Below the pieces are notes generated by a model. The model did no database searches. It saw only the letters and a list, made by a program, of their open reading frames with translations, and had not been told where the DNA came from. DNA of 63,441 bases, the filler included, from Reclinomonas americana ATCC 50394 (Eukaryota): the NCBI GenBank assembly GCA_048213135.1. It is 5 parts of 3 records of this genome, joined end to end, with 100 filler letters (N's around TTAATTAATTAA, not from the genome) between each part and the next. Parts side by side here need not be neighbours in the genome. Positions count along the whole stretch, not along the records: positions 1 to 25,680 come from PS015517.1; 4 more parts are not named here. One strand, given 5' to 3'. The translations under genes were made by a program, and so were the position numbers. Of this stretch, positions 1 through 63,441 are shown piece after piece (the first letter of the stretch is position 1; every line of letters begins with the position of its first letter).

Positions 1-46
1 GGATCAACAACAGCACGAGGTGAAAGAGCATTGCGACACAACTCAC

Positions 47-3000
47 CACTCGCCACCACACCCATCGCGCCGCACACAGCGTCCATCAGCTCCGGCACGG
101 CTACATGACGCTGAACAAGCGAAACGGTCTTCTGGATCAGGCCGCCTGTTATCGCACGCTGCTTGTTCTCGTTGAAGGCTGACAATGGACAGAATCAGAA
201 ACGCATCCACTCGCAATCTCCCCTGCCCCCAGTTCCCGACGCACAAACGCATGAGTTCCACAAGGCACGGATGCACGACTCGGCGGCCTTTGGATCGGCC
301 GAATAACGTTCCAGTGCATCGCAGAGAAGCTCCACACCGCCGGCGTCACCGAAACGTTCACGGCACAGGCGTTCATCTGGTCGTGGCAATGAGCAAATGA
401 CTGCAGCAACAAGACGGCACTCTCACGCACTTGCATTCAGCGCACGCACGGCGTCACATGCGGAGCGCACGATGCGCACGTCGGCGATGTTCTGGCGGAT
501 GAGCTCGGCCAGCTTCTCCAGGCATCCGGCTTCGCCCATCTGTACTTGGTTCTCCACAACGCCTGGCGGAGGGAGGAGAGTGAGAAAAAGAGGGGAGGGA
601 GAAGGGAGAAGAAACGGGGAATGGAATAAAGGAATGAGAGAAGGAGTGGTACGAGTAACATGGACAAGAAAGGAAGACACGAGAGAAAAAGAATGACGAG
701 AACAAGAAACAATCAAGAGAGAAGAAGAGGGAGGAGGTTGTGAGTAAAGAGGGAAGCAAGAGGGTATACAGTAACGAGTGTGACGAGAAGGAAAGAATGA
801 AGAGAACAAAGAAATAATCATGAGAGAAGAAGAGGGAGGAGGTCGTGAGTAAAGAGGGAAGCAAGAGGGTATACAGTAACGAGTGTGACGAGAAGGAAGC
901 GGAAAAGGTCCCAGTGAGAGCCCAGAGAACTGGGAGCAGAGGAGACGGGGAGGACAAGAGTATGAGAAGAAAGCACAAGATGCGGGAGAATGAAGAAAGA
1001 ATATACGAGTAGAAAGTGCCAGTCAGAGCATGCACAGGGAGGAGAGACATTCGCAAGACGCGAAGTTCGGCGGAAGGTACTGCAAGATATGCAAGACGAG
1101 ATCCGTAAAGCTATGTGAAAACAAGTAGAGCGAGAATGCTGAGGAGAACGGCTTTGTTAGGAGAGAGAGTAGAAATGTACAATGCGATAAAAGTGAAGGG
1201 TGCGAGAGACTCCGCTTATTCGCTACCTCCCCAGCCACCCTCTGACTCACCAAACACCAAGTTGTAAATGGCGTCGCAGATGTTGGTGGCCGCGGGTGAA
1301 CCCTTGTCGTGAATGGCCAAGGCCTCCATCAACAGCGACGGCAGTCCCAGGTCCCGCAGCTTCTGCTTCACGGGAGCCAAGCCTGCGACATCACATGACA
1401 ATGAATACATCACCGTCGCTCCCCCTGAGTTTGTCATGAGAGCGAGCGTACCAGCCATGCATGTGCACGTCGCCGCGCACACACTCGACACGGCGTCCAC
1501 GTCTTGAATGTGGCGGCGGAAACTGTCGATCAATAGTTGTGGCCCATCGACCGCCGCGAAGCGCTCCTTGTTGGGGGCGCACGCTGAAGATGAGGAGATG
1601 ATAAGTGGAACATGCAATGAGCGAAGAAGCCCACCAGAAAAACGCACTGACACAGCAGCCGTAGATGGCGCCGAGGCAGCCGCTGGCGGCTTCTGAGTCG
1701 TCCATAACTGCGCGCAATGTCTCCGCGACCAGCTCAACGCCGCCACTGTCGCCAAACTCGGTACGTGCCGGTGCATGTCCTACTCAGCGCACACCTCTGT
1801 CAGCTCACGCTCGTTGACGGAGATAAAGAGTACTTGCCCACGAACCCATCATCAGACTGTACAGTGAATTGTAGATGCACGACGGCATGCGAGGACTGTA
1901 CTTGTACTGGCTGGCGACAGAGAGCAGCAGCGCAATGGCTCCGAGTTCGCGGAAGCGAGTTTGCGCGGCGGGGTTGCCTGCGATGAGAAGCATGAAGGAC
2001 GAGGAACGCGAAAGAGAGAAATGAAGCATGTCAGCTTGTGTGTGCGCATGAAACCCATGCTCCTGGTATGTGTGGGCGGCCGTGCCTCTGCCTGTATTCT
2101 CTGTCGTCTATCGCAACAAAGCAAATCATGCAGCAGTTCAAGTCCCATCTTCTTCCACTTTTACAGCTCACTCATAGATCGAAACGACGCAAACCTTGTC
2201 CTTCCCTCACACTCGTTCTCGATATGTACTAGTCAGAGATCCTCTTCGTATGGCCTCCCGCTACATCTATAATCACTCCCTGTCTCTCTCCCTTCATCCT
2301 CTCCCATCTCGAAATCTCGCTTCTTTACATGTGCCTTCTATAGACTATACGTGTCTCACAACTCAACCATCACTCACGCACTTTTCGACACGTGGCTTCA
2401 GCATGGGTGCTCTCACTTTTGTTTTCAACGCGGAGAGTCTCGTCTGGTCTGTGTCTCATTCTCGGCTCGTCGTCCTGCCTCAACTGCACGTTTCTTATCA
2501 TCGACGACTGCCATCCCTATCTCTTCCTCCTTCTCCCTTCCTCACCAATAACACAATTGCCAACCGCCCGACCAGCCGACAAGCACGCACTCTCCGACTC
2601 CAGGTGGTCGCGCATGGCCGTCGACAGCAACTCCAATCCACCGGCCTCCATCATGTGCACCTGATTGATCTCGTTATCTGTATGCGCGCACACACACACA
2701 CACACGTGAGATCGATTGCCAAGGAGGAGCACTACGCTGAGAGAGAACCTCGAGTTCCATAGCGCACAGCATTCGCGACCAGCTCCACCATGGCAGCGTC
2801 GCTGCCGTATCGTCGCAGCAAGTCGGCCATCAGCTCATTCCCGTGCGCCGCGGCATACTTGTCACGCAGTCCCGAATACTGCTTGTCGTCATCCCATTCT
2901 TCCTGAACTGCATGTGCGTGCGCGTGTAAGGGGAAGGGAGAGACCATTATTCGCCAGTCGATGCGTACCATACACTGCGTAACGGAGGGCCGAGCAAAAC

Positions 3001-4219
3001 GCCGTCGCCAGCTTGGGATGCTCGACATGCTTGCGCACAAGTCCAACCAGCAGGGCAATCGAATTGACGGAGCTCGCTTGCACGCGCAGTGAAGGGTCTG
3101 CTCCTCATCATGAGAGAGGAGGGCAAATGGCGAGCATGTCGCGACAGGAGTGACGCAACGCTCCAACAAGAAATCGCGCGCTGCGTTGCCAATGCGTTCG
3201 AGCTCATCAGCGTCGACGGTCGCATCCAGCGCGTCGGCGCGCACCAGCTCATCGATTACGTGTTGCACGGCGGGGTCGACTTCCACTGGCGAGAGGGCAG
3301 AGTGAGGCGAGGAAAAGAGATGAGGGGATGGGGAAAGGGCGGAAGGCGATGATACCTGGTACGTCGGCGGCGACAGCGGCGGCGGCTGAAGAGGATGCGG
3401 CGGAGGGGTCGACGGGAGCTCTGCGTGAAGGGATGATGAGAGGGAGAAGGAGGAGGATGAGGAGGAGAAAGAGAAANNNNNNNNNNNNNNNNNNNNCAGG
3501 AGACAACCAAGCGAGACGCGAGAAGAGATTGCGATTGCCTCATGTGCATGAAGAGTATGCGTTTTGAAGGAAGGACGGAGAGAGAGACAGACAGACAGAC
3601 AGAGAGCGAGTGTGTGTAAGAGAGAAAGAGAAGGGAAGGGCGAAGGAAACCGAACTCTGAGTAACTCTGAATTCTTCCGCATCTCTCCCCTCTCTCTCAC
3701 GCACACACACGTTCTCTCTTTCTCTCTCTCACACACACACACTCACACACACACAGACAATCTCTCTCAATCTCTCTCGCCCTTCCTTCCCCATTCATCC
3801 CCTCCACCCTCCCTCTCCCTCTCCCACGCAACTCCTCCTCCACCTCCTCACCCTCCACCCTCGCCTCCATCAAACACACACTGCCATGACTCACACCAAT
3901 CTCCCGCAGCGTTCTCTCATCGCCGCTCACATCGATCACCACCTCACTCAACGCCGTCACCAGTCGCACAATCACAAATCGACGACTGTTGTCTTCTCTC
4001 TGCAAATGCTGTTGTTGTTGTTGTTGGAGGAGGAGGAGTGCGTCTATGGCGGTTTCGGCGACTGCGGAGAGACGAGTGTGCAGTGGGATTGCGGGGAGCT
4101 CCGCGCGCAGTTGTGAGGTGCAGTCGACGAGGATGGTGGCGTGCTCGTCGTCCTGTGGTGAGTGAGTGAGTGGGTGGGTGAGGTGGAGGGAGAGGGAGAG
4201 GTGTGTGCGCAACAGCCAT
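47..4219 (-). CDS. Ubiquitin-like domain + armadillo (ARM)-repeat protein, paralog 1 (multi-exon; 3' end runs off the window)
   Basis: Probable first exon ATG GCT (4219-4214) with GTTGCG donor. Exon 2 from 4152 encodes a UBL-like segment (…ERTLREIGVSHGSVCLM). Then ARM-like exons 2546-2677, 1846-1977, 1648-1779, 1452-1583, 1251-1382, 431-562, 245-376 and 47-178, each 132 nt and phase 1-1, with N..F..aGGvelL..l..h....v...c.Al motifs. Confidence 0.85.
716..898. repeat. Intronic direct tandem duplication, about 105-bp period
   Basis: gagagaagaagagggaggaggt(t/c)gtgagtaaagagggaagcaagagggtatacagtaacgagtgtgacgagaaggaa occurs twice. Confidence 0.85.
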
Positions 4220-4973
4220 GATTGGATTGTGCTTGGACAACAACAGGGGGACGACAAGGACAACTGCAGCTTGCCTTCGTTGTTTGCAGTCTGTGGGTCC
4301 TGTTTGTCTCGCAGCGTATGCTGGATTATGTGATCTCTGTGCCCTTGCATTTGACCACTGGCGTTGCGATGACTTTGATCGATATCACGCATGCAACGTC
4401 AGAACTTCTCGCCATACTTATAATTAGAAGCACGCAACAGCTGCCTTGACAACAACAATTCATTCACCAACAAACAAGCAACAGTTGTCATGCTGACCAA
4501 GTTCAACCATATCCAAAACATCAACACAGACACCAATCTTGAGGCAGCATCAGGTTTCTTGTGTGTGTGTGTTCGCTCTCGGAGCTCCGAACAAGTCGAG
4601 AACTGCGATCTTCATCGCATCAAGCGTGGTTGACCAGTGGATTTGACGCACTTGCATAGACGCTCGGCGATTTCTGCGATCGGTGGTATACGGCACATCG
4701 AATTCGTAGAAAGGCAAAGCCGGGTCCGGATCCGTGAAGCATGCAACGCAGCGGAGGCGTCGTCATTGATGGTGTGGTTGAAAAAATGAGAGCTTGTCGT
4801 GTTGTTGGAGAATCAGTGGTGATGCATGTGGCGCTCGCTAGTAGTGACCGCCAGCAAGCCTCGTTTGCTATCCTTCAACAAGTAAAACTGTCGACAAGTC
4901 ATGATCATGCACCTACCAGAGGCTGTCTTGATGGCCAACGCCAACACCAGTTTTGACGGCAGCCTTCTTGCAC

Positions 4974-7900
4974 TCAATCATACCCATCACCTCTCCCTCC
5001 TCCCCCTCCCTTACTCTGCTTGCGCACCCGCCGAGTCGTCTTCTTGCGACGCACCACCCGCCGACGACGAGCGGCACTGCGACTCTTCGCACCACCATCG
5101 TCATCGTCGCTGTCACTATCGTCACCAGCGCCGTCGTCATCGACGTCGTCATCGTCATCGCCGTCGTCGTCGTCGCTGCCCCGGCGCCTGCTTCTTGCCT
5201 CCACTTGCGCCTTTGCCGCCGTCAGCAACGACAGCATCGCCAGGCGCATCAGGTGGTTCGCTGCGCCCTCCACCATAAAGTGCATCGGATTCATCACCAC
5301 CTTCATCATCATCACGTCGGCGCCCTGCGCGGCCGCAAATCGCCGCAGACCCTCCGAGCCATCTGCGCATCCACACGTGACTAGTCAACAAACACACACT
5401 CCCTTCCTCCCTCACTAACTCATTCCCTCACCCTTCACCACCGTAGTCAGCAACGCCACTGCCGACCCGACCAATCGCGGATCCTGCGAATGCTCCCGAA
5501 TCACGTCCAGCACAATTTCCACCCCGCCGCCCGCCACAAACTGCTGCTCGTGTTGTGGTTCATCTGCAAAGGCCAAGTGAGAAGACCGGAATAAATTGAC
5601 CGGCAGAGTTCCTCCCCCGCGCCCACGCACCACAAATCACCATCACCAAGGCGGCGCATACACTGCCAGCCGCCTCCTCCGAGGCCACATGCAGGCGGAG
5701 CGCCTGCAGCAACAGCTCTGCTCCACCGGCCGCCAAGACGGGCGCACGACTCTCATCCTCTGTGGCGCCATTCATGATCAACACGAAAGGAGCAGGAAGA
5801 ACGAACAGGCTGCCTACCTTGGCACAATTCTCCAATGAGATTGCTGGCCTCCTTCACCACCGTACTGGCCTCGTTGATGTGCCGCCGTAGGCACTCCACG
5901 GCCAGCTGCAGACCGCCGGCGTCGCGAAAGTATCTCTTGTTTTCGCCTGCGGTGAAGAGAGAGACTGTGAGTGGGAGAAAGAATGAAACATGAAGCGCGT
6001 TCCACTCCCACACACACCTGTTGCAGCAATGCGTGCCACCGGCAGCACCTTGTCGACGATGCGCCAGTCGTCCATGTGCATCTGCAGCACGTCGACAATC
6101 TGTTGCATGCCACCAGCGACACCAAAGCGCTGCTTCAAATCGCCAGAATCTGTGTGACCGGGAAACAGTGAGCCGGCATCGCCAAATCATGAAAGGAAAG
6201 GAGGAAGCTCACCAGCAATGGCGCGGCGGAGGGCGCCAAACGCGGTCTGGACGACTTTTGAGTTTGCCGAGTGTTGGCGAATGACCTGTGCCAGCAGCTC
6301 GTAGCCGCCCGAGTCGGCGAATCGCACCTGCGGCTGCCCGCGGTCTGCCCGAGGAGAGAGTGTTGAGGAGGGGTGAGGGAGAAGAAAGGGAAGGAGAGAG
6401 ATAAGGAGTCCTGCGCGTAGTGCTTTGAAAGGGTTCCGTTGTCCTCTGCCCTTCGCTTTCTCTCTCATTTTCAACTTCAGGCATTCGGACTTCTTTCCTG
6501 TTTCTCTTCCTCCGTGCCAAAAATACAGAGAGGATCCGGAGGGTAGAGAAGCAGAGCAACCAGGAGCACGCAAACACTAAGAATTGATGACTCTGGCTTG
6601 GGAAATTAAACACACAGACGACAACACTGAATGGCGTCGAGATACTCAAGATGCGCAAAGACACAAGCACTCGGCCACACACAAGAGATTCGCAGAACCG
6701 CACGCATCAAGGGAGGATGAAGCGCCTCAGAGAGAAAACCACTTCCCCGTCCACCCACTCCCTTCTCGCAACTGAGAAAGTTCCACAGCGCTCCACACGC
6801 GTATTCGACAATGAGAGCCTCGTCCGGATGCTGCTTGATCACCTGGACAGCCGCATCAATGATACCACATTGAACGTAATGCTCCTTGATTTCGCCTGTT
6901 CCGGATCCTGATCAGACGATGAGCATTCATCGGTTGGCAGCTTGCTGACACACACATACACACTTTCGCGCACACACCGCTATTGGACTTGTTGATGGTA
7001 CGCAGCGTGTTTCGTACGACATCCTTGTTGTCAATATGCTCCCGCAGCATCTCGACAAACAACTGCGCACCTCCTGCATCAATCAGCTCCTCGCACACTT
7101 CGGCCTCTGTACGCGTGGTGAGCGACGGCACTGAAACACGACAAGCATTCCCTCCACCACGTACGAACCCTTGCAAAGTGGCTGAATGGCAGCAATAATG
7201 TGCTCCACTGCCTTGGCGTCTTCGTGGTGCTTCTTCAGCAAGTCAAGCAGTAAGGACAAGCCGCCCAGCACAAGAAACCTGCTCGCATTCTCGGCTGTCG
7301 GGCCATCTGCGCGCACGGACGAGTGAGAGGGTGGCAAACGCGGACGGAAACACACGGGAAATATGCGAAACGCTCAAGGCACGCGCACACCACTTCCGAG
7401 GCCCGCGCGATGAATAATTTCCTGTCGGAATGGTCCTTCAGTGCCTCGACAAGGAGGCCTATGCCATCGACAACGGCAAAGAGCGCGGAGGCGTGCGCAG
7501 TGTCCTCCGGATCGTCTGTGCACCGCGTGAGATGATACGCGACACGCACGGCGGCTCTATCTCTTTCTTTTGTCGTTGTGCTTCTCCCTCATCTTCCTCT
7601 CTTTCATCAACTTTTCTTGTCGCCCTTCTCTCCCACACCCAGTCACTTCCCTTCCCCTCTGTCTCACTCTTTCCTCTCCTCCCTCTTCCTCGCCCCCCTA
7701 CAGAACCTGCGGGAAGGAATAGCCACAACAGGCGCAGAGTGTGCCTTGTGACGCTGAAGTCCGACATGTGCGCGTACAGAATCTCGGCCAGCATGTCGAT
7801 GCCGTTGGCGGCAACAAAGGCCTTCTTATTTTCGACGGAGCCTGCGGGCCAGATGGAGTGAGAGGCGGAGCGAGACAAAAGTAACGAAACAGCAAGCTCA

Positions 7901-10900
7901 CCATCCAAGATCAACGTAAGCAGGTCAAACAGCTCGTTAATAGTATCGTCACTGTCGGCGTGCAGGCGAACGAGATCTACAATCAACTCCACACCGCCCG
8001 CCGCACGAAACGCTGCCGGCCCGGCGTCATGGAAAACTGGTGCGCGCGAGCGTGAGAAACAAAAGGCCGAACGCGGGGGAGGGGGAAAAAAAGAGTGTAC
8101 GCACCGGCGTTGTACATGGCCCAGTTGGCCATAGAGACTACGGTTGTCAACATGGAATGCTGGCGAGCGCAGTCGACCACCACGGAAAGCAGTCCGTTTT
8201 CGCAGCATGCGATCCCCGCGGTCTCAGCTGAGGGCAGAGTGAGAGAGGGGAAGGGGAAAGAGGGGAAAGGGGGGAAAGAGGGGAAAGAGGGGGAAAAGGG
8301 GAAAAAGGGGAAAGAGGGGGAAAGAGGGGAAAGGGTGGGGGAGGGGGAAAGGGTGGAGGAGGGAGGGGGAAGTGGAGGGAGAGAGAGCAGAGAAGAAGCT
8401 GACAAAGCGACACACGGCAACTTGCAAAGAGAGGAGACACACGCAGAAGGTGGGAAAAGGAGCAGCAGAAGAGAGACGGAGAGAAAATCGGGTAACAGCG
8501 ACATGGGGAGACAGAAAGGACAAAGCGAGAGGGGAGACACCGAAAGTGAGTGAGGCAAAAGAGGAACATTAAGGGAGACATGCAGGTGAGGGAGAGAAAG
8601 AGATTAAGGCCAGCCTGAAATGGGGAGAAAGAGAAGACAGAGAGCAGAACGAGAGACAGAGTCAGCGAGTCAGAAAGTGAGAGAGTGACGAAGCAGACGA
8701 CAGAAACGCAGAGAGACAGGAAGACAGGGCACAGACAGTCGACAGACAACGGCAGATGCGATGAAGAGACCAGTCTGTTCAGCCCACGCACCACGACAAC
8801 TCAGTCGAATCACATCAAACGCCCAGCACACGACCATTGGATTGCTGCCATGGTTCCGCAGCACCTGTGCCAGCACAGACAATCCACCGGCCTCCACAAA
8901 TGCCTCGCGAAGATCATCAGCGGCCTTGTCTTCCTCCGCATCGGTGTTCTCTGAGGAAAGACTGGATGAATAGCATCCCACATAACATGCCAAGACAACA
9001 ACCGGGCGACCGTGCTCACCGTACACCACTTCGCAGAGGGTGCAACACAGCGCCAGCACAGTTGCCTGGCTGTGTCCGACATTGGAGCGCAGCAAGTCCA
9101 GCAAACCAGCAGTGCCGCCTTGCTGTACAAACGGGCGGCACAAATGTCGGTCTGCATTCGCACACGTGTGAGAGAAGGACGCAAGCGAAGAGGGTCAGGC
9201 GCCATCAGCGAAGCAACGATCGTGCAGTGATTCGTTAATGGCCCAGACGGCGCGCTCGACCTCATCTCCGCGCGACACTTCCAACACTCGTGTGATTTCT
9301 TCCATGAGTGAGGTCACTGTGGGCGAGGGGGGCAATGGTGAGCGTGGGATGGTGAGAGATGCTAGAGGGTGAGGGGGAGGAGAAGACGGACCACTAGTAC
9401 TGTCGACGGCGGTGATGCCCTCTGGCTCTGGGATATCACAGTCCTTGCTGTGGGGGGGGATCAGAAGGGGAGAGTGGAAGAGAAAAAAGTGAGGATGCAG
9501 GAAGAGCAAAGGAACACAATTATGAGAGACAGCGAAGGCAGAAATAAGACAAGAGAGAGAGAGAGAGGTAGAGATAGACAGTAGGAAGGAGTGGGGAGTA
9601 GGGACGGAGGATAGACAAATGAGCACATGTTCAGAGAGCAAGGACAGAAGGAGGAGACGGGAGAAGGTGAAAGAGAGACTTTGACGACTGCAAGCATGAA
9701 CGGAGGACGATGTGGACTGAGCGGGGAGAGAGAAGGAGAAGGCAGGATACACAACGGTGTAGAGACTGACAGAGCAACAGTCAAAGAGCACATCCGCAGA
9801 CCAGGAAACATGAAGGGAGACAGCGAAGAGAATGAGGGAGAAGGATCAACAGGTGGGAGAACACAGCATGAGGGAAGAAACTTGAAGAGTGACAGGCGAA
9901 GTGCTGGAGTGGAGAGAGACAAGGAGACGAAGGGAGGGAAAGGATGCAAGACTGGAAGAGTGACAGGCGAAGTGCTGGAGTGCAGAGAGACAAAGAGACG
10001 AAGGGAGAGAAAGGATGCGAGAAAGCGCCGGAAACATCACAGGAGCGAGAGGAGACGGAGCTGGATTCCAAGAATGGAAAGAGAGAGAGAGAGAGAGAGA
10101 GAGNNNNNNNNNNNNNNNNNNNNNNNNNNNNNNNNNNNNNNNNNNNNNNNNNNNNNNNNNNNNNNNNNNNNNNNNNNNNNNNNNNNNNNNNNNNNNNNNN
10201 NNNNNNNNNNNNNNNNNNNNNNNNNNNNNNNNNNNNNNNNNNNNNNNNNNNNNNNNNNNNNNNNNNNNNNNNNNNNNNNNNNNNNNNNNNNNNNNNNNNN
10301 NNNNNNNNNNNNNNNNNNNNNNNNNNNNNNNNNNNNNNNNNNNNNNNNNNNNNNNNNNNNNNNNNNNNNNNNNNNNNNNNNNNNNNNNNNNNNNNNNNNN
10401 NNNNNNNNNNNNNNNNNNNNNNNNNNNNNNNNNNNNNNNNNNNNNNNNNNNNNNNNNNNNNNNNNNNNNNNNNNNNNNNNNNNNNNNNNNNNNNNNNNNN
10501 NNNNNNNNNNNNNNNNNNNNNNNNNNNNNNNNNNNNNNNNNNNNNNNNNNNNNNNNNNNNNNNNNNNNNNNNNNNNNNNNNNNNNNNNNNNNNNNNNNNN
10601 NNNNNNNNNNNNNNNNNNNNNNNNNNNNNNNNNNNNNNNNNNNNNNNNNNNNNNNNNNNNNNNNNNNNNNNNNNNNNNNNNAGAGAGAGAGAGAGTGAGA
10701 GACAGAGACAACAGAGAGACAGAGACAGAGACACGACCGCAACTCAGACGCCACACTGAGCTCCATTGTCGTTCCATTGCCAATGCCGAGTCCCACCAGT
10801 GGCACCTCCTCCATCTCCCAATGCGCAAACTGCAATGGGCGCCGAATGGCCACCACTCGCAAGACAGCATCGCAAGAGCTCTCACGCAAAGCGGCTGTGG

Positions 10901-11198
10901 CGGCCTTGATTAGGTTGGAGAGTGGAGAGTGCGCGTGCAGTGTGTGCAGTGAGACGGAGGGGGCGTAGTGTGGGCATTGAGTGGTGATGTGGATGGTGAA
11001 GTCCTCCTGTGCGTGTGTGGGTGAGTGAGTGAAGGAGGCAGGGAAGGCAGGGAGAGAAAGTCAAGGAGACGACACAAGAGAGAAAAGAGGAGAAACTGCA
11101 CAGGCAGAGAATGAGAGAGAAAGACAGACAGACATAAAGAGACAGAGAGAGGGGGGAGGGGAGAGAGAGATGCGGAAAAATAAGCGCGCAACATCCAT
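4974..11198 (-). CDS. Ubiquitin-like domain + ARM-repeat protein, paralog 2, with an acidic then basic (NLS-like) C-terminal tail
   Basis: First exon ATG GAT (11198-11193) with GTTGCG donor. Exon from 11006 reads EDFTIHITTQ…PLVGLGIGNGTTMELSV (UBL-like). Pro-rich linker exon about 9197-9447. ARM exons include 7372-7515, 7169-7306, 6978-7106, 6773-6907, 6213-6344, 6018-6149, 5818-5946, 5631-5759 and 5432-5563, all phase 1-1. The last exon ends in poly-D followed by RRRRVVRRKKTTRRVRK and a stop at 4974. Confidence 0.85.
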
Positions 11199-11389
11199 GT
11201 TTGATTGTGTGTTTGTTCGGAAATACATCGTGGGACCAATTGCAAGCCGACATGCATGTAGACAACAACGCTCAGACCACCTTTCTGAGCACCAGAGAAA
11301 CTGCGATATCTCAGCAAAACGTGTTGTCTTGTGCATATCTCTCCAGATCCGTGCATCGTTGGTCGTCGAATAATTATAAGCACCCAGCG

Positions 11390-26301: not shown

Positions 26302-27400
26302 NNNNNNNNNNNNNNNNNNNNNNNNNNNNNNNNNNNNNNNNNNNNNNNNNNNNNNNNNNNNNNNNNNNNNNNNNNNNNNNNNNNNNNNNNNNNNNNNNNN
26401 NNNNNNNNNNNNNNNNNNNNNNNNNNNNNNNNNNNNNNNNNNNNNNNNNNNNNNNNNNNNNNNNNNNNNNNNNNNNNNNNNNNNNNNNNNNNNNNNNNNN
26501 NNNNNNNNNNNNNNNNNNNNNNNNNNNNNNNNNNNNNNNNNNNNNNNNNNNNNNNNNNNNNNNNNNNNNNNNNNNNNNNNNNNNNNNNNNNNNNNNNNNN
26601 NNNNNNNNNNNNNNNNNNNNNNNNNNNNNNNNNNNNNNNNNNNNNNNNNNNNNNNNNNNNNNNNNNNNNNNNNNNNNNNNNNNNNNNNNNNNNNNNNNNN
26701 NNNNNNNNNNNNNNNNNNNNNNNNNNNNNNNNNNNNNNNNNNNNNNNNNNNNNNNNNNNNNNNNNNNNNNNNNNNNNNNNNNNNNNNNNNNNNNNNNNNN
26801 NNNNNNNNNNNNNNNNNNNNNNNNNNNNNNNNNNNNNNNNNNNNNNNNNNNNNNNNNNNNNNNNNNNNNNNNNNNNNNNNNNNNNNNNNNNNNNNNNNNN
26901 NNNNNNNNNNNNNNNNNNNNNNNNNNNNNNNNNNNNNNNNNNNNNNNNNNNNNNNNNNNNNNNNNNNNNNNNNNNNNNNNNNNNNNNNNNNNNNNNNNNN
27001 NNNNNNNNNNNNNNNNNNNNNNNNNNNNNNNNNNNNNNNNNNNNNNNNNNNNNNNNNNNNNNNNNNNNNNNNNNNNNNNNNNNNNNNNNNNTTTTCTCCT
27101 TGTGTGGACTGCTCTTCTTTCTCATCAAGTGTACATTTTTGTTGGGTGGAAAGTTTGCCGCTGAAGAGCACTCTATCAATCAATCGAGGAGTAAGAATCA
27201 AAAGAAATAAGGGGAAAAACCGACATGGATACAAGGGAAGAAAACGGGGTGAGGGATGCGGAAGAAATAAGAAAACAAGGGCATCATCGTACACACATCC
27301 CACCCCAGAGACACACATGATGACGCACTTCGCGAGAGCGTCCATGGTAACTAACACACACACTAGGTACAAAAAAAAAGACAACATCATCACCACCCGC

Positions 27401-28944
27401 TCATGCACGAGTACCGGCGGCGACCGCCTGCGCCGTAGCCGCCGGCATTTTAGGTGTACAGTGCGCGGCGGGAGTCGCACGATCATTCTCCGGCGCCTTG
27501 GGGAGCGGCATGCGCGGCGGACCCGACGTACGCATAACAAACATACTGGCCGCGCGCGTGCGCAGCAACCCCGACGTCGCCTGCGACAGCGTCCCCGCCA
27601 GCCCACCACTCGGCACCGGCGCTGTTGCCGACGACGACGGCGGCGACTGCTCAAACACCGCCGGGACGACTGCAGTCGGCGACGACGGCGACGGCTTTGG
27701 CAGGCTCGTCGGCGGCGGTGGCGGCAAGTGCTCATTGGGNNNNNNNNNNNNNNNNNNNNNNNNNNNNNNNNNNNNNNNNNNNNNNNNNNNNNNNNNNNNN
27801 NNNNNNNNNNNNNNNNNNNNNNNNNNNNNNNNNNNNNNNNNNNNNNNNNNNNNNNNNNNNNNNNNNNNNNNNNNNNNNNNNNNNNNNNNNNNNNNNNNNN
27901 NNNNNNNNNNNNNNNNNNNNNNNNNNNNNNNNNNNNNNNNNNNNNNNNNNNNNNNNNNNNNNNNNNNNNNNNNNNNNNNNNNNNNNNNNNNNNNNNNNNN
28001 NNNNNNNNNNNNNNNNNNNNNNNNNNNNNNNNNNNNNNNNNNNNNNNNNNNNNNNNNNNNNNNNNNNNNNNNNNNNNNNNNNNNNNNNNNNNNNNNNNNN
28101 NNNNNNCGCCACCACGCGACGTCGGAACGAGGCCGCCAGTGGCGAGTTGCGTGACAAACCGCCGCCTCCACTCGCCGCCGCCGCCGCCGCCGCCGCCGCA
28201 GTTGCAGCCAGCGGACTTGATGACGACGACGCCGATGAAGCCGGCGAGCGCAGTGGCGAGTCAATCGACGATGATCGACCGTGACTGTTACCGCTGCCTC
28301 CGCCACTGGAGCGCGATGGCGGAGATGAGGCCTTGAAGGGCGGCGGTGGCGGCTGCGTCGGCATGGCCATGGGAAGCGACGCACGGCGACCCTCTGTCAT
28401 CATGTGCGCCGGCAACGAGGATGCTGGTGGCGCCGCTGGCGGAGTTGGTGATCCACGCAGGCTCTCACGCGGAGGCGGAGTCGATGAGGCGCTCGAGGCC
28501 GCCGACGATGCTGCTGATACTGCCGCCGCGGCTGTTTGCGTGTGTGAGAGAGTCGGTCAGTCATCTCGCTCTCGCCATGCTCACTCCCTCCCACGACACA
28601 GACGCACGTTTCTTTGCCACTGGCGCCACTGGGAGCTGACTCGGGTGCGCAGGAGGCGAGCTGGAGCGTGGCTTGGTGGAGGGAGCCGATGATGATGATG
28701 ATGACAGCGGGGCAGCAGCAGTGACAGTGGCGGTGGAGGAGGCCACATGTGCTGCTGGTGGCTGCGTGCCGCTCACTGTTGTTGTTGTTGTCGTTGTCGT
28801 GGACGAGGCGGTGACAGTGGTTGCAGAGGTGATGGCCGCAGGTGATCGCCTCCGACGGCGCATGCGCCACAGCATGTACAATGCAATCGCTGCGATGGCT
28901 GCAGCACCGCCCGCCAGCAGCAATCGCACGCTGAGGCGGCTCAT
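27401..28944 (-). CDS. Low-complexity Ser/Pro/Ala-rich protein with an N-terminal signal-anchor
   Basis: MSRLSVRLLLAGGAAAIAAIALYMLWRMRRRRRS is a hydrophobic helix followed by a basic cluster. Short GTGCGT intron near 28540-28607. The gene spans an N gap and probably stops at 27401. Confidence 0.6.
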
Positions 28945-34800: not shown

Positions 34801-37800
34801 TCTCTCTCTCTCTCTCATCCTCACTCTCCCATTGTCTCCTCCGCAAGGAATCCATTCCCTTTTCCACTCTCTCCTTTCACCTCCCAACAAACGTTCTCGC
34901 TCTCCTCCCTTCTCTTATCCTCGCCCTCCCATTATCTCCTCTCCACTCTGTCCTTTCCGCTATCAACCAAACATTCCCTCGCTCACTCTCCTTCTCTCTC
35001 GTCGTCTCTTCTCCAAGGAATCCCTTCCCTCTTCCACTCTCTCCTTTCCCCAACCAACTTGCCTTCAGCTCTGGTGTCACCGTCGCAATGACCGTTGACG
35101 TAAGCGTCACGTGCGACGGGTCCTCGGCCTTGACCATGGCAGCCAGACGCTCCACGGCCTTGAAGACACGACTGTGCTCCGAATGATCGGTCCACAGCTC
35201 CATCTGCAACAACGGAGTGAGTGCTTTTGTACTTGGAAAGACGTCTATGCATGGAATGCCATCAAACCTCATTGCCAACGTTCCACGCCAGCAGCTACGC
35301 GACAGGGTGTTAGAATCCACACATGGCAAACAACGCTGTGAGTGACTCCAACACAACTGCTGGGTGGTACTTCCAGCGCTTGACGACACCAATGGCCAGC
35401 TCGTCTTGCTGATCCTCGTACGGGCTTCCGGTGGTGTCTGCACAAGGTGAATGAGTTGCTGAGTACTTGCCACATAAAAAGCCGAGAACACGGGTGCCAC
35501 GCAACAGTTGAAGGCAGGGAACCGATCGGGAATCTTCTCCGGTTGCATCTTCAAGCCAATGACCACAGAGAGGCCGAAACTCTGCGCAATGTCGAGAATG
35601 TTCGGCGTGCCAGCCAGCTGGTCCGGATCGTACAGACGAATGGTGTTGCCACCGGAACTGCAATGAAAGAGGGATGATGAGCTCCACAAACACAGCTCAT
35701 TATCGTCTCTGATAACCCTCTGCTCCACTGAGCTCGCATTCCCTTGCTCGTTTGCTTGTGATATCTCCCTTCTCCCTTACCCTCTCCCCTCCCTTTCCCC
35801 TCCCTCACCGAGACAAATAATCGAGGGCCACTGGATTGTCGGTGACGGCACCATAAATGCGGAACGGCTGCTCGCACCGATACAACGTCCACGTGGTGCG
35901 TCCAAACTTGTCGGGCGCGCCCTTCTCCAGTCTCGAGTTGACGCGGCAGCCACCTACGCACACATCGAACTCGCCGCAGGCTCGCTCGCACTTGTCGCCA
36001 AACCAGCCGGCATTGCACTGGCACTTGGTGGGACTGAGCGCGCCGAGACCGCACGAACCATTGCCGTTCTGCACGTGGTTGCTGTCAGGGCAATGCGAGG
36101 CGCAGAGGCAAACGAGATAAAACACACGCAACGCATTGGACTTTCGGATCGCACTTGGAGCTGGCGCTGATGTCGCCGCCGGGTGGCACATAGTCGACGC
36201 CACCCACCGGCAGCAATCGGAACGCACGGTCCACGTACTGCAGACACGCACACGCCATCTTCAGCAGTCTTGCAAAAAAAAAAAACCGAAAGCTTGGCGC
36301 CCTCGTCACACACGCACCATTCCATTGCCCTTGTCGGTGCCTCGAATGACGAGTTGCAGGGGAACGCGATTGGCCGGCGGCATAAAGACTGAAATCAGAT
36401 TGCCGTTGGGGCCACTGAGCACCACAGAGTTGGCCGGAGACTGACTCTGAATGGTGAATGTGTGCTGATCGCCAGGCTCGTCCACTGCAGTGAGTTTGCC
36501 AATGATGGAGTCCTTGACGGCCGGGTACTGTGCGGAAAAGAACATCCATGTCAGTCAGCGTGTGTGCCACAGAATGCATCTCATGCCGATCCCTTCACTG
36601 CTACTCACCCAATACTCGACTGTCGACAGCAAAATATCCGTGGGCGCATTGTTGACTGCAGCCATGCAAAGTGAGTAAGTAATCCCAGCTCTCTCTCTCT
36701 CTCTCTCTCTCTCACAGATTCCGGCCCTAACGAAACTCGGAATGGCAAACTGCTTCTCGATAGTGAAGCTGGCGCTGTCGGTGCACCGCACACGAATGTG
36801 CAGCGGCGATTGGCGACCGCTGCTCAGCCACTGGCCGGCGGCGGCATGCACCGTGGTGTCGGACACCTGGAACAAATTGTTGTCGTTGCTGCCGTCGCCG
36901 CCCACGAGAGCGCACAGGAAGGTGTCGAAGAAATTCGGGTCCACCGGAATCAGACTGCCGACGATCGAGCCGCCGGCAATGGGCAACGGCAGTGGGCGCG
37001 GATAGGAGAGCAACTTGAGGCGCAAATCCAGTGGCGCAGTCGGAGTGGTGGTGTTGGTCAGCGGCAGCTCCTTGATGGTCAGGATCTTGTCGAGACGGCC
37101 ACCACCATTGTCGATGGTGGCACGGAAGTTGATCGACAAGTCACCGAACGGCGGCTGATCAATGATCAACGAGGTATTGTCTTGCGGCGAGAGCTTGACG
37201 GCGGTCTCGGGGAACTGGCCACGAATGGTGAATGTTGCCGTGTCGGTGGGAGCCAGTCCAACAGCCGTGAGCGAGCCGACAAAGAAACCGGCAGGCGGAT
37301 TGATGGGGTACGTGGTTGGCTTGACAGTGATGTCGGTCGGCGTCTTGCGACCCGACAACGTGGGGTCGATGAACGGGAGCGACAGTGCCTGCTCCAACCA
37401 CAGACCATCGCGGTCAGTCACGCGCACGCGCAGCTGCATCGGCGACGTGATGGAGCCAGACGGGATGCCAGTGCCGCCAGTGACCGTCACAAAGAGACCG
37501 TCGCTGTCCACAATGAACAGGCTGTTGTGCGTCGAACCGGCACCGGAAGCCAGTGAGTAGGTGAACTTCTCGTTCGAGTTGGCGTCGGTGGTGGTGAGGC
37601 CGAGGAGGCGCTGGCCAGGCAACAGCGGAAGCTGCAGCGGTGGGTCGTCAATGGCGTAGACCATTGCGGCGGGTGCGGTGGGTGCTGTGCGAGAAGAATG
37701 AGTTGGTGAATGAAGCAGGCGCGAGAATGGATGACAGACCTTCGCCCACGAGGAAGTCGGCCTCGCCGACGGCCCCGTTGGCATCGGTGACACGCACTCG

Positions 37801-40800
37801 CAGGCCGACGCGGCCGGCGACGGCGCGTGCAACCGTGAGCGCGCCAGTAGTGTTGGAAATCGCAAACGCGCCGACAGGACGCTGGTACAGGATGCGATAG
37901 AGGTACGGAGCCTTGCTGGCGTTGGTGACCGACACGGAGCCGATCTGCGCGCCGGCAGTGGCCGGCACCGGGTACGTGCCAGCACCACTCAGCAGCAGCG
38001 TGAGTGTGTTGGACGTCGGCTTGGTGGTGTCGTCGAACAGAATGACAAACGACTTGTTGATGATGGCGCCGGTGGAGGTCTTGGTGGCCTGAATCGTCAC
38101 CGAACCCTGCATCGGGAACGGGGCCGCGGACAGATTGCTGACCATCAGCTGGGTTGAGGCCAGCGAGAAGAGGTTGCCGGGCGTCTGTGACAGCAGCGTA
38201 AAGGTGTACGCCAGGCCGGCGCTGCCGGACACCGACACGAAGCCAATGACGGACTTGTCGGCGATCGGCACGGCGATTTCGCTGACCGACAGCGCCACCG
38301 TCTCTCCCGCCGAGGAGTCGACTGAGTGAGGAGGACAAGTGAGTGAGGATGAAAAAGGAAAGGATGGTCCGAGGTTGGAGAACTCACCGACAGCCACCAG
38401 GAACGACCGCGTGACGGCGGCACCGGTCAGCGGATCCGACGCCTGCACCGTGAGCTGCACCGTCAGGGTGCCACTCGGCGGCGCCTTTTGCACCTCCACA
38501 GTGTTGCCGTTAAGGCGCAGCACGTCGGCCGGTGTCTGCGACACAATGCTCAGCTTGTCCGTGGCAACGTCGACGGCGTCGTCGACAATGGTGAGGGTGC
38601 CGAGGGAGAGGGTCGAAGCTGCCGGCAGCGGGATGGTGATGGGGTCCAGGACGCCGGTGATGTCGCGGGGAGGGTTGTTTACTGAAGGGGAAGGGGGAAG
38701 GAGGTGAGAGGGGAAGGGGAATAGGGGAACGAAAAGGGGAAGGAGAATAGGGGAAGGGATAAGGAGAAGGGAAAAGGGAAAGGGAGAAGGGGGAAGGGGG
38801 AAGGGAGGTGAGAGGGGAAGGGGAAAAGGGGAAGTGAAAGGGGAAGGGAAAAGGGGAAGGGAGAAGGGAAAGGGAGAAGGGGAAGGGAGAGGAAGGGAAA
38901 GGGAAAATGATAAGGGGAAGGGAAAAGGATAAGGGGAAGGGAAAAGAATAAGGGGAAGGGAAAAGGGGAAGGGAAAAGGATAAGGGGAAGGGAAAAGGGG
39001 AAGGGAAAAGGGGAAGGGAAAGGGAGAAGGGAAAGGGATAGGGAGAAGGGAAAGGGATAGGGAGAAGGGGAAGGGAAAAGGGGAAGGGAAAAGGAGAAGG
39101 GAAAAGGGGGAAGGGGGAAGGGAGGTGAGAGGGGAAAGGAGATAAAAAGCAATGGAGAGAACAGAACAGGCGACACTTTAACGAGAAGAGAATGAGCCAG
39201 AAGAGGAGAAGAGAGCAACTGGAGAGCACGTGCTTTCCAACGTAATGTACACGTGAAGGAGAAAGAAAAATGAAGAAAGCACAGCAAGCGATGAGAAAGT
39301 ATCACAATAAATTGAGAGCGAGAAAAGAGATAAATAAATGGGAAGAGAAGGGCGAGGAGCAATAGAAGAGAGAAGAGTGACACAAGAGAGCACAAGAGAG
39401 CAGAGCTGACAAGTGCTATGCAAGCGAGAAAGGAAGGCGAAGAGAGGTCATTTCAACAAGAACGAACTACAGGAGCGAGGGGAACGGAGTAAATAAGAAG
39501 AAAAGGAAGGGATCATACTTAAAAACGCAGTTGAAGAAACAATGCAAAGAGTGTCCAAGTCACCAAGTACGAATAACACAAGCGAACGGGATGGAAAAGT
39601 CCGTAAACAAGAAAAGAAAAGAGTGACTCTCAGAGCGCGAAGAGCACAGCTTGCAGGTGTGTTGCGTACTCGTGAAAACAAAGAGTAGAGTCCAGGTTGG
39701 CAAGTAGAGAGGAACAGCATAGAAGGAGGACGTCATAATGAATGGAAAGAAAACAGAATGAATGTTGACAAGCAAGAAAGGATTGACAGCTGTGTTATGC
39801 ACCGGGGGAAATCGTGAGAACGAAAGTCGGAAGCAACAAGGAAAGAACAGCAGATAAGCGAAGGGATATGAAGAGTCGTCGCCCTTGAGCGAGATCGGTG
39901 AATTGTCTCTTCATCACCGATGCACTCACCTCCCACAACAAACAGCATGCGCGAGGTGACAGTGGTGCCGCTGATGCTGGCCTGCACCGTCACCGACAGC
40001 GTCGAGACAACTTGCGGGGGGAGACCACCGCTGGCCACCACTAGTTTGTTGCCCTGGCCAATGGCGAAGAAGCTGGGCGAATCCTGCACGGTGAACAGCA
40101 CGGCGCTGGCCGGTGCACCCGTGTCGACGGTCAGCGTGCCGACCAGAGCGCCAGCAGAGGCCGGAAGCACCATGCGTGTGGTGGCCAAGGTGATTTGCAG
40201 GTTGGCCAGAGTGCCTGCGACAAGCGACAAGTGATGAGAAAGCTTGTCATGTAACGCAATTGACGGTGAAATTCACGCACCAATCGGCAACACAAACGAC
40301 CGCTCGACAAACTGCATGCGCAGCGACTCAATGGCTCGCACCGTTACCGTAATCGGCGACGCGATGCTGCTCAGGGCACCGACCACCACCAGCTTGTTGC
40401 CGGATAGGGAAACTGAGCCAGTCGGCTGTTGCGACACGAGCTGGAAGGAGATGTTGCTGGTCACGTCAGAGACCAGAGTGCAGGCTGTCGCACCGCTCGG
40501 CAGCGGCGAGGGGATCATCGTCTCCTGGCAGTTGACGCGAGTGGGGGCGGGAGGGGCTGTGTGGAGGGGGAAGAAAGGGGGAGGTGAGACAAGAGGGAAC
40601 AAAGGGAAATGGAAGCAACAAAAGGCAAGGAGAAGGGACAGAAATGGAGAGACAAGACGGCAAGGAAAGAGAACGAGAGACAAAGGGCGTGGGAAGAGAT
40701 GGCGAGACAAGCGGGACAGTGACGTGAAAAGAACCCAAATGGTAAGGGATGAGAACGAGAGGCAAGAGAAGAGGAAGAGATTTGGAGAGACAAGAGGGAA

Positions 40801-43610
40801 ACGAGAGACAAAGGGCATGGGAAGAGATGGTGAGACAGGCGGGAAAAGTGACGAGAAGAGAACCCAAATGGTAAGGGAGGAGAACGAGAGGCAAGAGAAA
40901 AGGAAGAGGTTTGGAGATGACAGGAAAAAGGTAGAGAAGCGACAAAGGGCATGGGGAAGGGAAAGAGATGGAGAGACAGGGGAGAAATGGACGAGAAGAG
41001 AAACCAAATGGAAAGGACAGAGATCGAAAAGGAAAAGATGTTGAGATAAGAGGGAAAGAGTAGAGATGCAAAAAAGAGAAAAGAGAGGGAAGGAGACAAA
41101 ACGGATAAAAAGAGGAGCAACAAATTGATGTGTGCTTGCAAGATAGAAATCGAAGAGACGGAAACGACCAACTATCTGCAGTGAACAAGAGAGCACAACA
41201 CGGAATGTATCTGGAGGCCATGAGAAAGGGGCGTGAGTGAGAAGGGGACGGAAAAGTTTGGGCAAATGCGACCGCTATCATGAAAGCATGAGATTTGAAT
41301 GAGCAGTCACAATGCGACCGCATTGAGATACAAGTGAGAAAGCGAAAGCAGGAGAAAGTGTTTGAAGAGTCTGAGCAGCTTTGGCATCATGGAGGAAGCA
41401 AGGTATAACTAAGATGAAAGCAGACCCTGACAACAACACAGAAATTGTAAAATCCCGCAAGACGAGGCATAAGCAAGATAGTCTCGAAAGAGCAAAATCG
41501 ACATCGTGAACGACGGATAGAGAGAGAGAGAGAACGAAAGAAAAACGGACATGAAGACATGCAGAAGAAGGAGAATGAATGCATATTCCCCTTTCCCTTC
41601 CTCCCTCTCCCCTTTCCACCCTTCCCCTTCGCCCCCTCCGGCCCACTCACCCGACACCACCGGCAACGACAGAGTCTTGTTGAAGTAGGCCTTGGTCACC
41701 GTGTCCGTGGCACGCACCACCACCGACACCGATTGCACACCGTTGGGTGTGCCCGACAGAATGAGCGAGTTGCCCGACAGGCTCACAATGCCCGCCGGCG
41801 TCTGCGACACGAGCGACAAGAGCAGCGCGTTTTGCACTGCCGCCGCGGGCACGGCCGTCAATTGCGCCACCACCGACTGCAAGGTGATTGGCAGGTAGAG
41901 CGACGGCGTCGCCGGTGTCGTCACAATGTCGATGGGCGGCAGCGAAACTGTGCGTGCAAAATTAATCAAAGAAAGAGCGCGATTGGTAAGTGGGTGTACG
42001 GCACCTTGCAGCTGCACCGTGCCCTGTGCCGAGGTGCCCGTGCTGGTGGCCACCGCCGAGATTGTCACCGAGATAATCGGTTGCGCGCTCTGGAGAATAC
42101 CGGCCGCGCCAACAATCAGCTGGGACCCGCTAATGACGAACGGGCTGTTCGTGGTGCCCAAGGTGAACACGACGGGTCCAGTGAGCGAGGACGACAACGA
42201 GCCGACCACCGTCTGCGGCGCCAGTGGGAGCGGCAACGGCGAGCCGGCAGTCGCCACGAAGCGAATCGTGAGGGAGGGGAAGATGGTGAAGTTCTGTGCG
42301 TGCAATCACGTGAGACGAAGAAGACATGGCAAAATATGGTCTCATTACGCACTCCAACGATGCTCATGTTGGTGGAGCGCTCGGTGGCCTGGATGACCAG
42401 CGTCACCGACGTGGAGAGCACACTGGCCGCCTGCAGTACGTTGCCAGACACCAACTGCACCGAGTTGGGCGGCGTCTGTGACATGATCGAGAAGCCGACG
42501 GGGTCGACGCCGGGGTCGTTGTCGACGAGGATGGTGGTGAGGGTGGAGCCGACGGGCGCCGGTGACGTGAACTGTGTCGCAGTCAGGCGCAGGTTGGTCA
42601 GCGGCTTGTTGACGGGGATCGTCAGCGGTGCCTCCCAAGAGGAGCCGGCTGTGTGTGTGTGGTCAAGAAAACAGTCTTCGTCAGCACGCAGAAGGTGGGG
42701 AAAAAATGGAAGAGGCGGAACCGCAACTGCCGTCAGTGACCCGCACGCGAATGCTAAAGTAGCTGGCCGTCGGCACTCCACATTGCACGCAGTAGACCCA
42801 CTGATTGAGGTAGACGGCAAAGGAGGCGTTGTCTTGACTGCCGGCGCCGCTCACGAGTTGCACGTCGGTCAGCGGTGCAGTGGCGTCGGTGAGGATCCAC
42901 CCGGCCACCGAGTAGGAGCGTGGCACGGGGAGGCGGTCGAACCACATGTTGTAGGTGATGCTGCGGGAGGTAAGAAGGGAAGGAGAGGGGGAAGGGAAAG
43001 GGATGGGGAAGGGAGGTAAGAAGGGAAAGGAATGGGGAAGGGAGGTAAGAAGGGAAAGGGATGGGGAATGGAGGTAAGAAGGGAAAGGGGGAAGAGGAAG
43101 GGAGGTAAGAAGGGAAAGGGATGGAGAAAGAGAAGAAAGGTAAAGGATGCAGGAGGGGATACGAGTAATAGAATATGGCAAAGATTACTGAAGGGAGCGG
43201 AAAAAGAATCAGAGACGACGGCCAAGGACACCAAGAAACTAGGAGAGGGCAAAGAAAGGAAACAAGATGAGATATGAAAGAGAGAGAGAATCGAGATTGC
43301 AGGTTTTCTGTGGGAGAATGCACCACTGAGAGAAAAAGGAGAAAGGAATAGGGAGGAGATCGAGACGCAGGAGAGTACGGAGGAACATAATGTATACAGA
43401 GGGTTCAGAGTCCGCGCCATGAGGCAAATGTGGAATGTGCTAGATGTTGAAGGACAAGGGGGAAGGGAGCAACATGGCAAATATGCGTGCTAGAGCGAAT
43501 ACTTTGTGTGCAACGTCCACAAGCGAGGAGAAGAGTAGAGAGTCGAAGAGAGAGATGACCCACGAACGCACACGGGCATATACACACACAGTAAGAGATC
43601 AGAATGAGAA

Positions 43611-63100: not shown

Positions 63101-63352
63101 CTGTGGACAGAAGAGTGAGGGGGATGTGGGGAAGGGGGATGTGGGGAAAGTAGGAGGAGGGGAGGAAAGGTCTCTCGATCGCTCTCTCTCCCCTTTGCTC
63201 TTTCTTTCTCATGTGCCCAGCGTAGAGTCCAACAGGGATCATCCGAGAAAAAGAGAGAGAAAATAGGAAGGATGGAAAGAGAGACCAAGCAGACATGCAC
63301 ACATGCAGACAGACAGACAGTATTAGCAACATAGAAACCAGCAGAGATCATG

Positions 63353-63397
<45 letters not shown>

Positions 63398-63441
63398 AGA
63401 GAAGAGAAGAAGAAAGAAGAAGAAGAAAGAAAGAAAAGAAA

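Follow-up and report, generated by a model that had tools for sequence, protein, structure and literature searches.

When every repeat of a protein is encoded by its own exon, the question arises whether this layout merely records how the array once grew, or whether single repeats are still skipped, exchanged or added. This question is raised by two neighbouring genes of Reclinomonas americana ATCC 50394 (assembly GCA_048213135.1), which encode arrays of armadillo (ARM) repeats and are located within the first 11300 positions of the stretch of 63,441 nucleotides (nt) analysed here. This stretch, in the following called the window, consists of five parts of three records, and positions 1 to 25,680 are derived from PS015517.1. 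The genes are arranged head-to-tail on the minus strand in the region 1-11300: gene B (around 11006 to 4974) is followed by gene A (around 4615 to below 1), which begins approximately 360 nt downstream of the stop codon of gene B and whose 3' end lies beyond the start of the window. The array is probably the preserved trace of an old tandem exon duplication, which was followed by duplication of the whole gene.

Correspondence between exons and armadillo repeats

Exons were searched for as AG...GT segments with open ARM-like frames, using a list of stop-to-stop frames. Acceptors and donors were tabulated together with their phases around each ARM-like frame, boundaries were picked by eye with the repeat in mind, and the resulting chain was joined by coordinates and translated; all exon boundaries given here are splice sites inferred from the sequence. 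Gene A contains ten ARM exons in the window, which are 129, 159 and eight times 132 nt long, and the 14 ARM exons of gene B have lengths of 132, 159, 123, 135, 135, 144, 138, 129, 135, 132, 132, 129, 129 and 132 nt. The initial annotation had described eight successive exons of 132 nt flanked by phase-1 introns in the first of two paralogs, which is borne out at positions 2677-2546 through 178-47 with these predicted splice sites, and the range 47..9150 that it had assigned to the ARM exon series agrees with the ends found here within one base. For nine exons of the second paralog, lengths of 129 to 144 nt had been reported, all of them multiples of three and of phase 1-1; length divisibility and phase hold throughout, and the size range applies to 12 of the 14 exons, but not to exon 2 (159 nt) and exon 3 (123 nt). 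Each of the 24 ARM exons has a length divisible by three and carries two bases of a split codon at its start and one at its end, i.e. phase 1-1. As had been proposed, removal or doubling of any one of them would by arithmetic leave the reading frame intact.

The 24 inferred introns all start with GT, possess a G at position +5 in 19 cases and end with CAG, except for one that ends with TAG. Nineteen of them are 54-71 nt long, the other five are low-complexity introns of 191-688 nt, and the median length is 67.5 nt. Retention of 21 of the 24 introns would cause a frameshift or introduce a stop codon; the ARM frames can therefore only be joined by their removal, which argues for true introns independently of the choice of splice site. 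The GC content by codon position is 0.64/0.45/0.72 in gene A and 0.66/0.40/0.69 in gene B, as in coding sequence, and the chain of gene B starting from position 9316 comprises 790 residues without an internal stop and ends at the stop codon at 4974. Every alternative boundary that keeps the frame was also found to be of phase 1-1 and to yield a multiple of three, so that the exon length changes while the phase is fixed. Open AG..GT segments of 132 nt occur frequently by chance in 9.6 kb of the region. Exon length alone is thus no evidence, and the weight lies on the exon boundaries, which coincide with 24 repeat units.

In a Pfam scan performed exon by exon, in which single exons are short queries, Arm was listed for eight of 23 ARM-exon queries (E 0.00026-0.048), one of which, exon 9 of gene B, exceeds the curated gathering score (21.4 versus 20.6 bits). 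Positions 1-41 of the Arm profile align with exon residues 1-42. The alignment of all 24 exons contains a Gly-Gly turn between helices H1 and H2, the columns of which are kept in 19 and 17 of the 24 repeats, hydrophobic positions in H2 and H3, and an R-x-H motif after H2 (R in 15 and H in 18 of the 24). A profile built from the 24 exons matched SmgGDS (5zhx, E 8.5e-9, the best match), designed ARM proteins, plakoglobin, HMP-2 and ODAD2 in the PDB. An AlphaFold model of the 43-residue exon 10 of gene B, calculated with the other 23 exons as alignment, reached a predicted local distance difference test score (pLDDT) of 95 and shows helices at residues 4-10, 13-23 and 28-42; a Foldseek search of this model against the PDB gave no match at E <= 0.001, the model being too small. 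The repeat is thus a three-helix unit of around 42 residues with a short H1, an H2 and a long H3, and forms tandem arrays of at least ten units in gene A and 14 units in gene B, as is typical for ARM proteins. One exon is predicted to encode exactly one H1-H2-H3 unit, with the intron located at the junction between H3 and the next H1, after the first base of the codon. The register of the Pfam Arm profile, the PDB matches of the profile and the AlphaFold model all agree with the earlier claim of one ARM repeat per exon.

Both proteins are long ARM solenoids and, by analogy with others of this fold, probably act as binding scaffolds for peptides or proteins. In importin-alpha, the H3 helices carry a conserved Asn/Trp ladder. 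The H3 helices of the gene A and gene B repeats lack such a ladder, and binding of the nuclear localisation signal type is therefore not assumed.

Origin of the exon array

The repeats are highly divergent despite their regular exon size and phase, as the initial annotation had noted: the mean pairwise amino acid identity of the 24 repeats is 19.9% and the maximum is 39.5%. At the nucleotide level, matches between different exons extend over 14-20 nt only, and the 24 introns share a single 14-nt word. An intron element was also considered and rejected, since the introns have no mutual similarity. Adjacent repeats resemble each other no more than repeats lying further apart do (19.4 versus 22.9 BLOSUM units in gene A, 30.2 versus 29.4 in gene B). 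By contrast, the order of the repeats agrees between the two genes. When row and column means are removed, the pairing of each gene A repeat with the gene B repeat of the same number gives a diagonal sum of 131.8, compared to 48, 48, 20 and -88 for offsets of 1, 2, 3 and 4; random assignments yield 0 +/- 40 in 20,000 permutations, which corresponds to p = 0.00055 for the diagonal. The best colinear path through the two arrays has a p value of 0.0035 (2,000 column shuffles). The two genes are paralogs, as had been suggested, and they are colinear repeat for repeat. They also have two landmarks in common: the second ARM exon measures 159 nt and carries an acidic extension, and the pre-ARM exon ends in phase 1 with a GTTGC donor. 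A six-frame search of the 63 kb window with the 24-exon profile matched these exons alone (E <= 1.8e-10), everything else remaining at E >= 1.1.

The colinearity of genes A and B and their shared landmarks suggest that the array was formed before the gene was duplicated. The array thus appears to predate the gene duplication, and since then there seems to have been no detectable exchange or gain of repeats and no local expansion. The duplication history itself is inferred and may be pictured as follows. The ancestral gene would have grown its array by tandem duplication of a unit consisting of one exon plus its intron, a process that by necessity produces phase-symmetric exons of repeat length. 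The finished array would then have been copied as a whole gene, after which both copies may have diverged to approximately 20% identity per repeat while every intron was kept. The packing requirements of the ARM fold, rather than ongoing exchange, would have kept the exons close to 132 nt. A comparable layout is found in ankyrin genes, in which one repeat of 33 residues is encoded by one exon of 99 nt and which are read as the trace of tandem exon duplication; the ankyrin arrays resemble genes A and B in their symmetric exons of repeat length and differ from them in fold and exon length.

Several points weigh against this history. All splice sites are derived from the sequence, and some exons have in-phase alternative boundaries, among them five in gene B (exons 2, 5, 6, 9 and 13). 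Three introns, of 69, 69 and 60 nt, preserve the frame, contain no stop codon and could in principle be coding, and seven of the 24 donors carry an unusual T at position +3 (GTT...). The colinearity is statistical and not visible for each exon, as only the second exons of both genes are reciprocal near-best partners. Moreover, the 24-exon profile was built from our own exon calls, so that its six-frame matches to these exons are circular, and the family count covers the 63 kb window only, which would be compatible with a large dispersed family. Finally, the database searches yielded no close relative with which the ancestral intron state could be compared.

Relatives, flanking domains and competing explanations

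The 24-exon profile matched 2,244 proteins at E <= 0.001 among 1.84 billion representatives, 459 of them at 1e-10 and 25 at 1e-30. A tblastn search of the best 150 of these relatives against the window returned 116 pieces; for the best 12 of the 150, no piece exceeded 50% identity and each spanned single repeats only. Neither gene A or gene B nor close relatives of them appear to be present in the representative collection. Ten relatives that were looked up are metagenome or transcriptome proteins, and several of the best ones are located on short metagenome contigs. A word-based protein search with the 24-exon profile gave a single match of 677 residues, which is named vacuolar protein 8 by one source (E 1.2e-8). 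No relative was found among longer proteins for a 119-residue piece that reads from ARM exon 1 of gene B through the intron into exon 2, and a scan of metagenome contigs with this piece gave 599 pattern matches, none of which was confirmed. Among the best 20 of the 2,244 relatives, 19 contain Pfam Arm and most also ARM_ARMC5 or ARM_LRRK2. Like other generic ARM proteins (PF00514; ARMC5-like and LRRK2-ARM-like protist arrays), they share with genes A and B the three-helix unit of around 42-44 residues, the Gly-Gly turn and the long tandem array; unlike genes A and B, such proteins can carry N-terminal RING or U-box, kinase, caspase, TIR, BTB, CAP or SH3 modules. Eight of the best 20 have such other N-terminal modules, namely RING, CAP, U-box plus kinase, U-box, caspase, BTB, SH3, and TIR plus kinase. 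In six of them, the protist or metagenome proteins P0004, P0009, P0012, P0014, P0017 and P0020, the ARM array is fused to RING, U-box plus kinase, U-box, caspase, BTB, and TIR plus kinase modules. This range of modules calls to mind immune or ubiquitin-ligase adaptors; no such module was found in gene A or gene B.

Both genes of R. americana start with an N-terminal domain of around 90-100 residues, which is followed by a linker and a capping-helix exon. The initial annotation had labelled this domain ubiquitin-like (UBL), a label that finds weak support here. The language-model neighbours of both N-terminal pieces are the ubiquitin-fold families Rad60-SLD, ubiquitin, TmoB and YukD, with 127-134 shared features and a score of 0.88, which is below the line of 0.9 and ranks as a lead. 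In contrast, no Pfam family was found for the N-terminal pieces (gene A at E <= 1, gene B at E <= 0.001), and an AlphaFold single-sequence model of the gene A piece is all-helical but of a confidence too low to be of use (pLDDT 58). The two pieces have no significant similarity to each other (BLASTP E 0.075) and align poorly with MAFFT, and a search of longer proteins with the N-terminal exon of gene A revealed no relative. A ubiquitin-like fold is plausible for this domain, because two unrelated-looking pieces give the same language-model answer. Pfam detected neither NB-ARC nor ROC-COR nor any further signalling domain in the identified N- and C-terminal exons, part of the 5' region of gene B being hidden by an N run and the 3' end of gene A lying outside the window.

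Instead of being a mere relic, the layout could have been kept after an old duplication because single ARM exons are skipped, which would vary the length and specificity of the solenoid. Skipping any one of the 24 exons would leave the frame intact, and the seven non-consensus GTT donors would fit such a use, as donors of this type often accompany alternative exons. Including the pre-ARM exons, eight GTT donors were found, with last exon bases at 1846, 2749, 3160, 6773, 7169, 7372, 7707 and 9218 (GTTCG, GTTCT, GTTTC and GTTGC), and the rest are GTG or GTA; seven of the eight belong to the 24 tabulated introns, and the eighth closes the pre-ARM exon of gene A. They could either reflect a habit of the lineage or mark weak, possibly regulated sites. 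A precedent is human RAP1GDS1, which codes for SmgGDS, an all-ARM chaperone of small GTPases and thus an ARM solenoid like the products of genes A and B. Exon 5 of the 15 exons of this gene encodes exactly ARM C, and in-frame skipping of this exon converts SmgGDS-607 into SmgGDS-558, a functional shorter isoform (PMC8242357). Among PDB entries, SmgGDS is moreover the one that the repeat profile matches best; however, this match covers one stretch rather than the whole length and is no better than expected of a generic ARM repeat. SmgGDS further differs from the proteins studied here in having 12-13 ARMs and no extra domains, whereas genes A and B encode an N-terminal domain and gene B, in addition, 14 or more ARMs and a tail of charged residues. 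To our knowledge, all RAP1GDS1 exons encode one ARM each. In a genome rich in short introns, all 24 introns could be kept without such a function. Regulated use of the exons, which is suggested here by analogy, is therefore unlikely as the reason for the layout.

An extended form of this idea would make genes A and B members of a new UBL-ARM family, in which every repeat is a spliceable phase-1 cassette. Combinatorial skipping would then act along the whole array, unlike the single exon of SmgGDS, and the resulting solenoids would differ stepwise in length and binding specificity; the family could also use this layout to diversify through exon exchange elsewhere in the genome. We regard this possibility as a long shot.

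The initial annotation had drawn a parallel to the LRR-ROCO and NB-ARC-TPR genes of the brown alga Ectocarpus, which have been proposed to diversify by exon shuffling. Applied to genes A and B, this would mean that symmetric exons undergo active duplication, deletion and swapping among family members, whereby a binding surface is varied. In the Ectocarpus study, these genes are described as having one repeat per exon, with exons that are multiples of three in length and often equal in size over a run, a screen for equal-length exon runs yielded almost only TPR and LRR loci, and the families are large, with low exon divergence and a synonymous divergence (dS) below 2 (Zambounis et al. 2012, PMC3341825). 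With seven successive pairs of equal-length exons divisible by three, gene A would pass the first screen of that study, and immune-type domains (TIR, caspase, kinase, U-box/RING, BTB) occur in six of the best 20 repeat relatives. However, this first property is the only one of the Ectocarpus criteria that was found for genes A and B. They encode ARM instead of LRR or TPR repeats, the repeats are approximately 20% identical, nucleotide similarity of exons and introns is limited to short words, neighbouring repeats are not more alike, and the order of repeats agrees between the two paralogs. In addition, genes A and B are the only copies in the 63 kb window, and their identified exons lack a signalling domain. 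Ongoing diversification by exon shuffling, as proposed earlier, is therefore very improbable here. Colinear exons in both paralogs and no local expansion, which are the observations made, are among the outcomes that the initial annotation had named as indicating ancient tandem exon duplication only.

It is more improbable still that the array was originally intronless and that separate insertions, for instance of a spreading intron element, occurred at one common proto-splice site in every repeat. Such a history would fit the bias at the exon junctions, where exons end with G in 19 of 25 cases and the next base is A or G in 20 of 26, and it would fit the relatives on short metagenome contigs, which were presumably called as single open reading frames without introns. 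However, the introns share just one word, parsimony clearly favours the duplication of an exon-intron unit over 24 separate gains at one position and in one phase, and the pattern is common to genes A and B and thus older than their split. It can hardly be maintained that open frames arisen by chance, or remnants of decayed pseudogenes, were taken for exons and that the regular sizes result from the picking of splice sites: many chance segments of 132 nt exist, boundaries were chosen with the repeat in mind and no homolog exceeds 50% identity among the best 12 of the 150 relatives, but the repeated ARM signature with its high-confidence three-helix fold, the ARM matches in the PDB, the 2,244 profile matches, the codon-position GC bias, the stop-free chain of gene B and the uniform GT and CAG intron ends all argue against an artefact.

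Old tandem exon duplication followed by gene duplication thus remains the probable origin of the array. Exon-per-repeat arrays and a single-ARM exon, that of RAP1GDS1, are already known, and genes A and B are a very regular case without close relatives. No description of an array with one ARM per exon was found in the full-text literature, most subscription journals being outside this search, and the accessible parts of PMC1553488 and PMC5100051 contain nothing on the exon structure of ARM genes. If the gene models are right, the locus is an unusually clean case of a gene structure that mirrors structural units, with 24 of 24 repeats in symmetric exons at around 20% identity. It could serve as teaching or test material for the growth of solenoids by exon duplication and provides a natural set of 44-residue ARM modules, which can be compared with designed ARM proteins. 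On present evidence, it does not point to a new mechanism.

Exon coordinates and neighbouring genes

All exons of both genes are located on the minus strand and are described in the direction of transcription. The N-terminal domain of gene B, possibly ubiquitin-like, is encoded by an open reading frame at 10746..11006, which is cut by the N run 10104-10681 that hides part of the 5' region of this gene. A tentative exon of 53 nt at 9395-9447 is followed by the 99-nt pre-ARM helical exon (9218..9316), which is of phase 1-1 and has a GTTGCT donor. ARM exon 1 (132 nt) is located at 9020..9151, and exon 2, which is 159 or 156 nt long and carries the acidic N-terminal extension, at 8792..8950. The 123-nt exon 3 (8105..8227) is preceded by an intron of 564 nt (8228-8791), which is of low complexity, consists of 82% C+T on the sense strand and, on the plus strand, contains stretches in which short GGGGAAAGA-like units follow one another. 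Exons 4 (7902..8036) and 5 (7707..7841) are 135 nt long each; exon 5 has a GTTCTG donor, would measure 174 nt with a GTGAGA donor at 7668 and matches Pfam Arm with an E-value of 0.048. Exon 6 (144 nt, 7372..7515) has a GTTTCG donor and a 162-nt alternative ending at 7354. For exon 7 (138 nt, 7169..7306; Pfam Arm E 0.035), GTTCGT is the only frame-keeping donor seen. Exon 8 (129 nt; Pfam Arm E 0.023) lies at 6978..7106. Exon 9 at 6773..6907 measures 135 nt, which an acceptor at 6895 would shorten to 123 nt; it has a GTTGCG donor and is followed by an intron of 428 nt. Exon 10, which was used for the AlphaFold model, and exon 11 are 132 nt long each and are found at 6213..6344 and 6018..6149, respectively. 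Two exons of 129 nt follow, exon 12 at 5818..5946 (Pfam Arm E 0.0099) and exon 13 at 5631..5759, which would be 126 nt long with a donor at 5634. The array is completed by exon 14 (132 nt, 5432..5563). The last exon of gene B (389 nt, 4974..5362) encodes a final helical part, an acidic run and a basic run and contains the stop codon; in Pfam, it gave weak low-complexity matches only.

Gene A starts with a tentative first exon of 12 nt, which contains the ATG (4604-4615). The N-terminal domain, again possibly ubiquitin-like, is encoded by a 301-nt exon (3852..4152) with a phase-0 acceptor and a phase-1 GTGAGG donor. The N run 3477-3496 lies in the linker region, just upstream of the tentative pre-ARM helical exon (126 nt, 3160..3285), which is of phase 1-1, has a GTTGCG donor and would be 261 nt long with an acceptor at 3420. 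ARM exon 1 (2969..3097) is 129 nt long with a CAG acceptor, or 132 nt with a GAG acceptor at 3100, and the 159-nt exon 2 (2749..2907), with its acidic N-terminal extension, is the counterpart of exon 2 of gene B. Exon 3 (2546..2677) is the first of the eight exons of 132 nt and is followed by an intron of 568 nt. The next exons are exon 4 with a GTTCG donor (1846..1977), exon 5 with the sole TAG acceptor (1648..1779), exon 6 (1452..1583) and exon 7 (1251..1382). The subsequent intron of 688 nt (563-1250) contains, as judged by eye, a direct duplication of approximately 75-105 nt (around 716-800 and 821-905 on the plus strand) within purine-rich sequence of low complexity. Exons 8 (431..562) and 9 (245..376) match Pfam Arm with E-values of 0.0033 and 0.0012, respectively. 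Exon 10 (47..178) is of phase 1-1, with a CAG acceptor and a GTGAGT donor, and the gene extends past the start of the window.

In total, the window contains 15 N runs comprising 2,789 bases, which, besides the two mentioned above, include 26302-27091, 27740-28106 and 51809-52304. Long frames on the minus strand at 36555-42305 contain a repeated beta-rich module of around 100 residues, which by eye is cadherin- or Ig-like; the cadherin-like assignment of this gene was not upheld, as two pieces of it gave no Pfam family at E <= 0.001. An EF-hand pair protein is encoded at 21004-21762 on the minus strand (EF-hand_7, E 5e-20) and a dual-specificity phosphatase at 55468-56250 on the plus strand (DSPc, E 8.8e-22). 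At 59260-63400, the minus strand carries a dynein heavy chain gene, in which Pfam identified a DHC_N2 domain (E 8.5e-45) as well as the beginning of the AAA_6 motor region; by eye, it resembles the dynein-2 type of intraflagellar transport, which would imply a ciliated organism.

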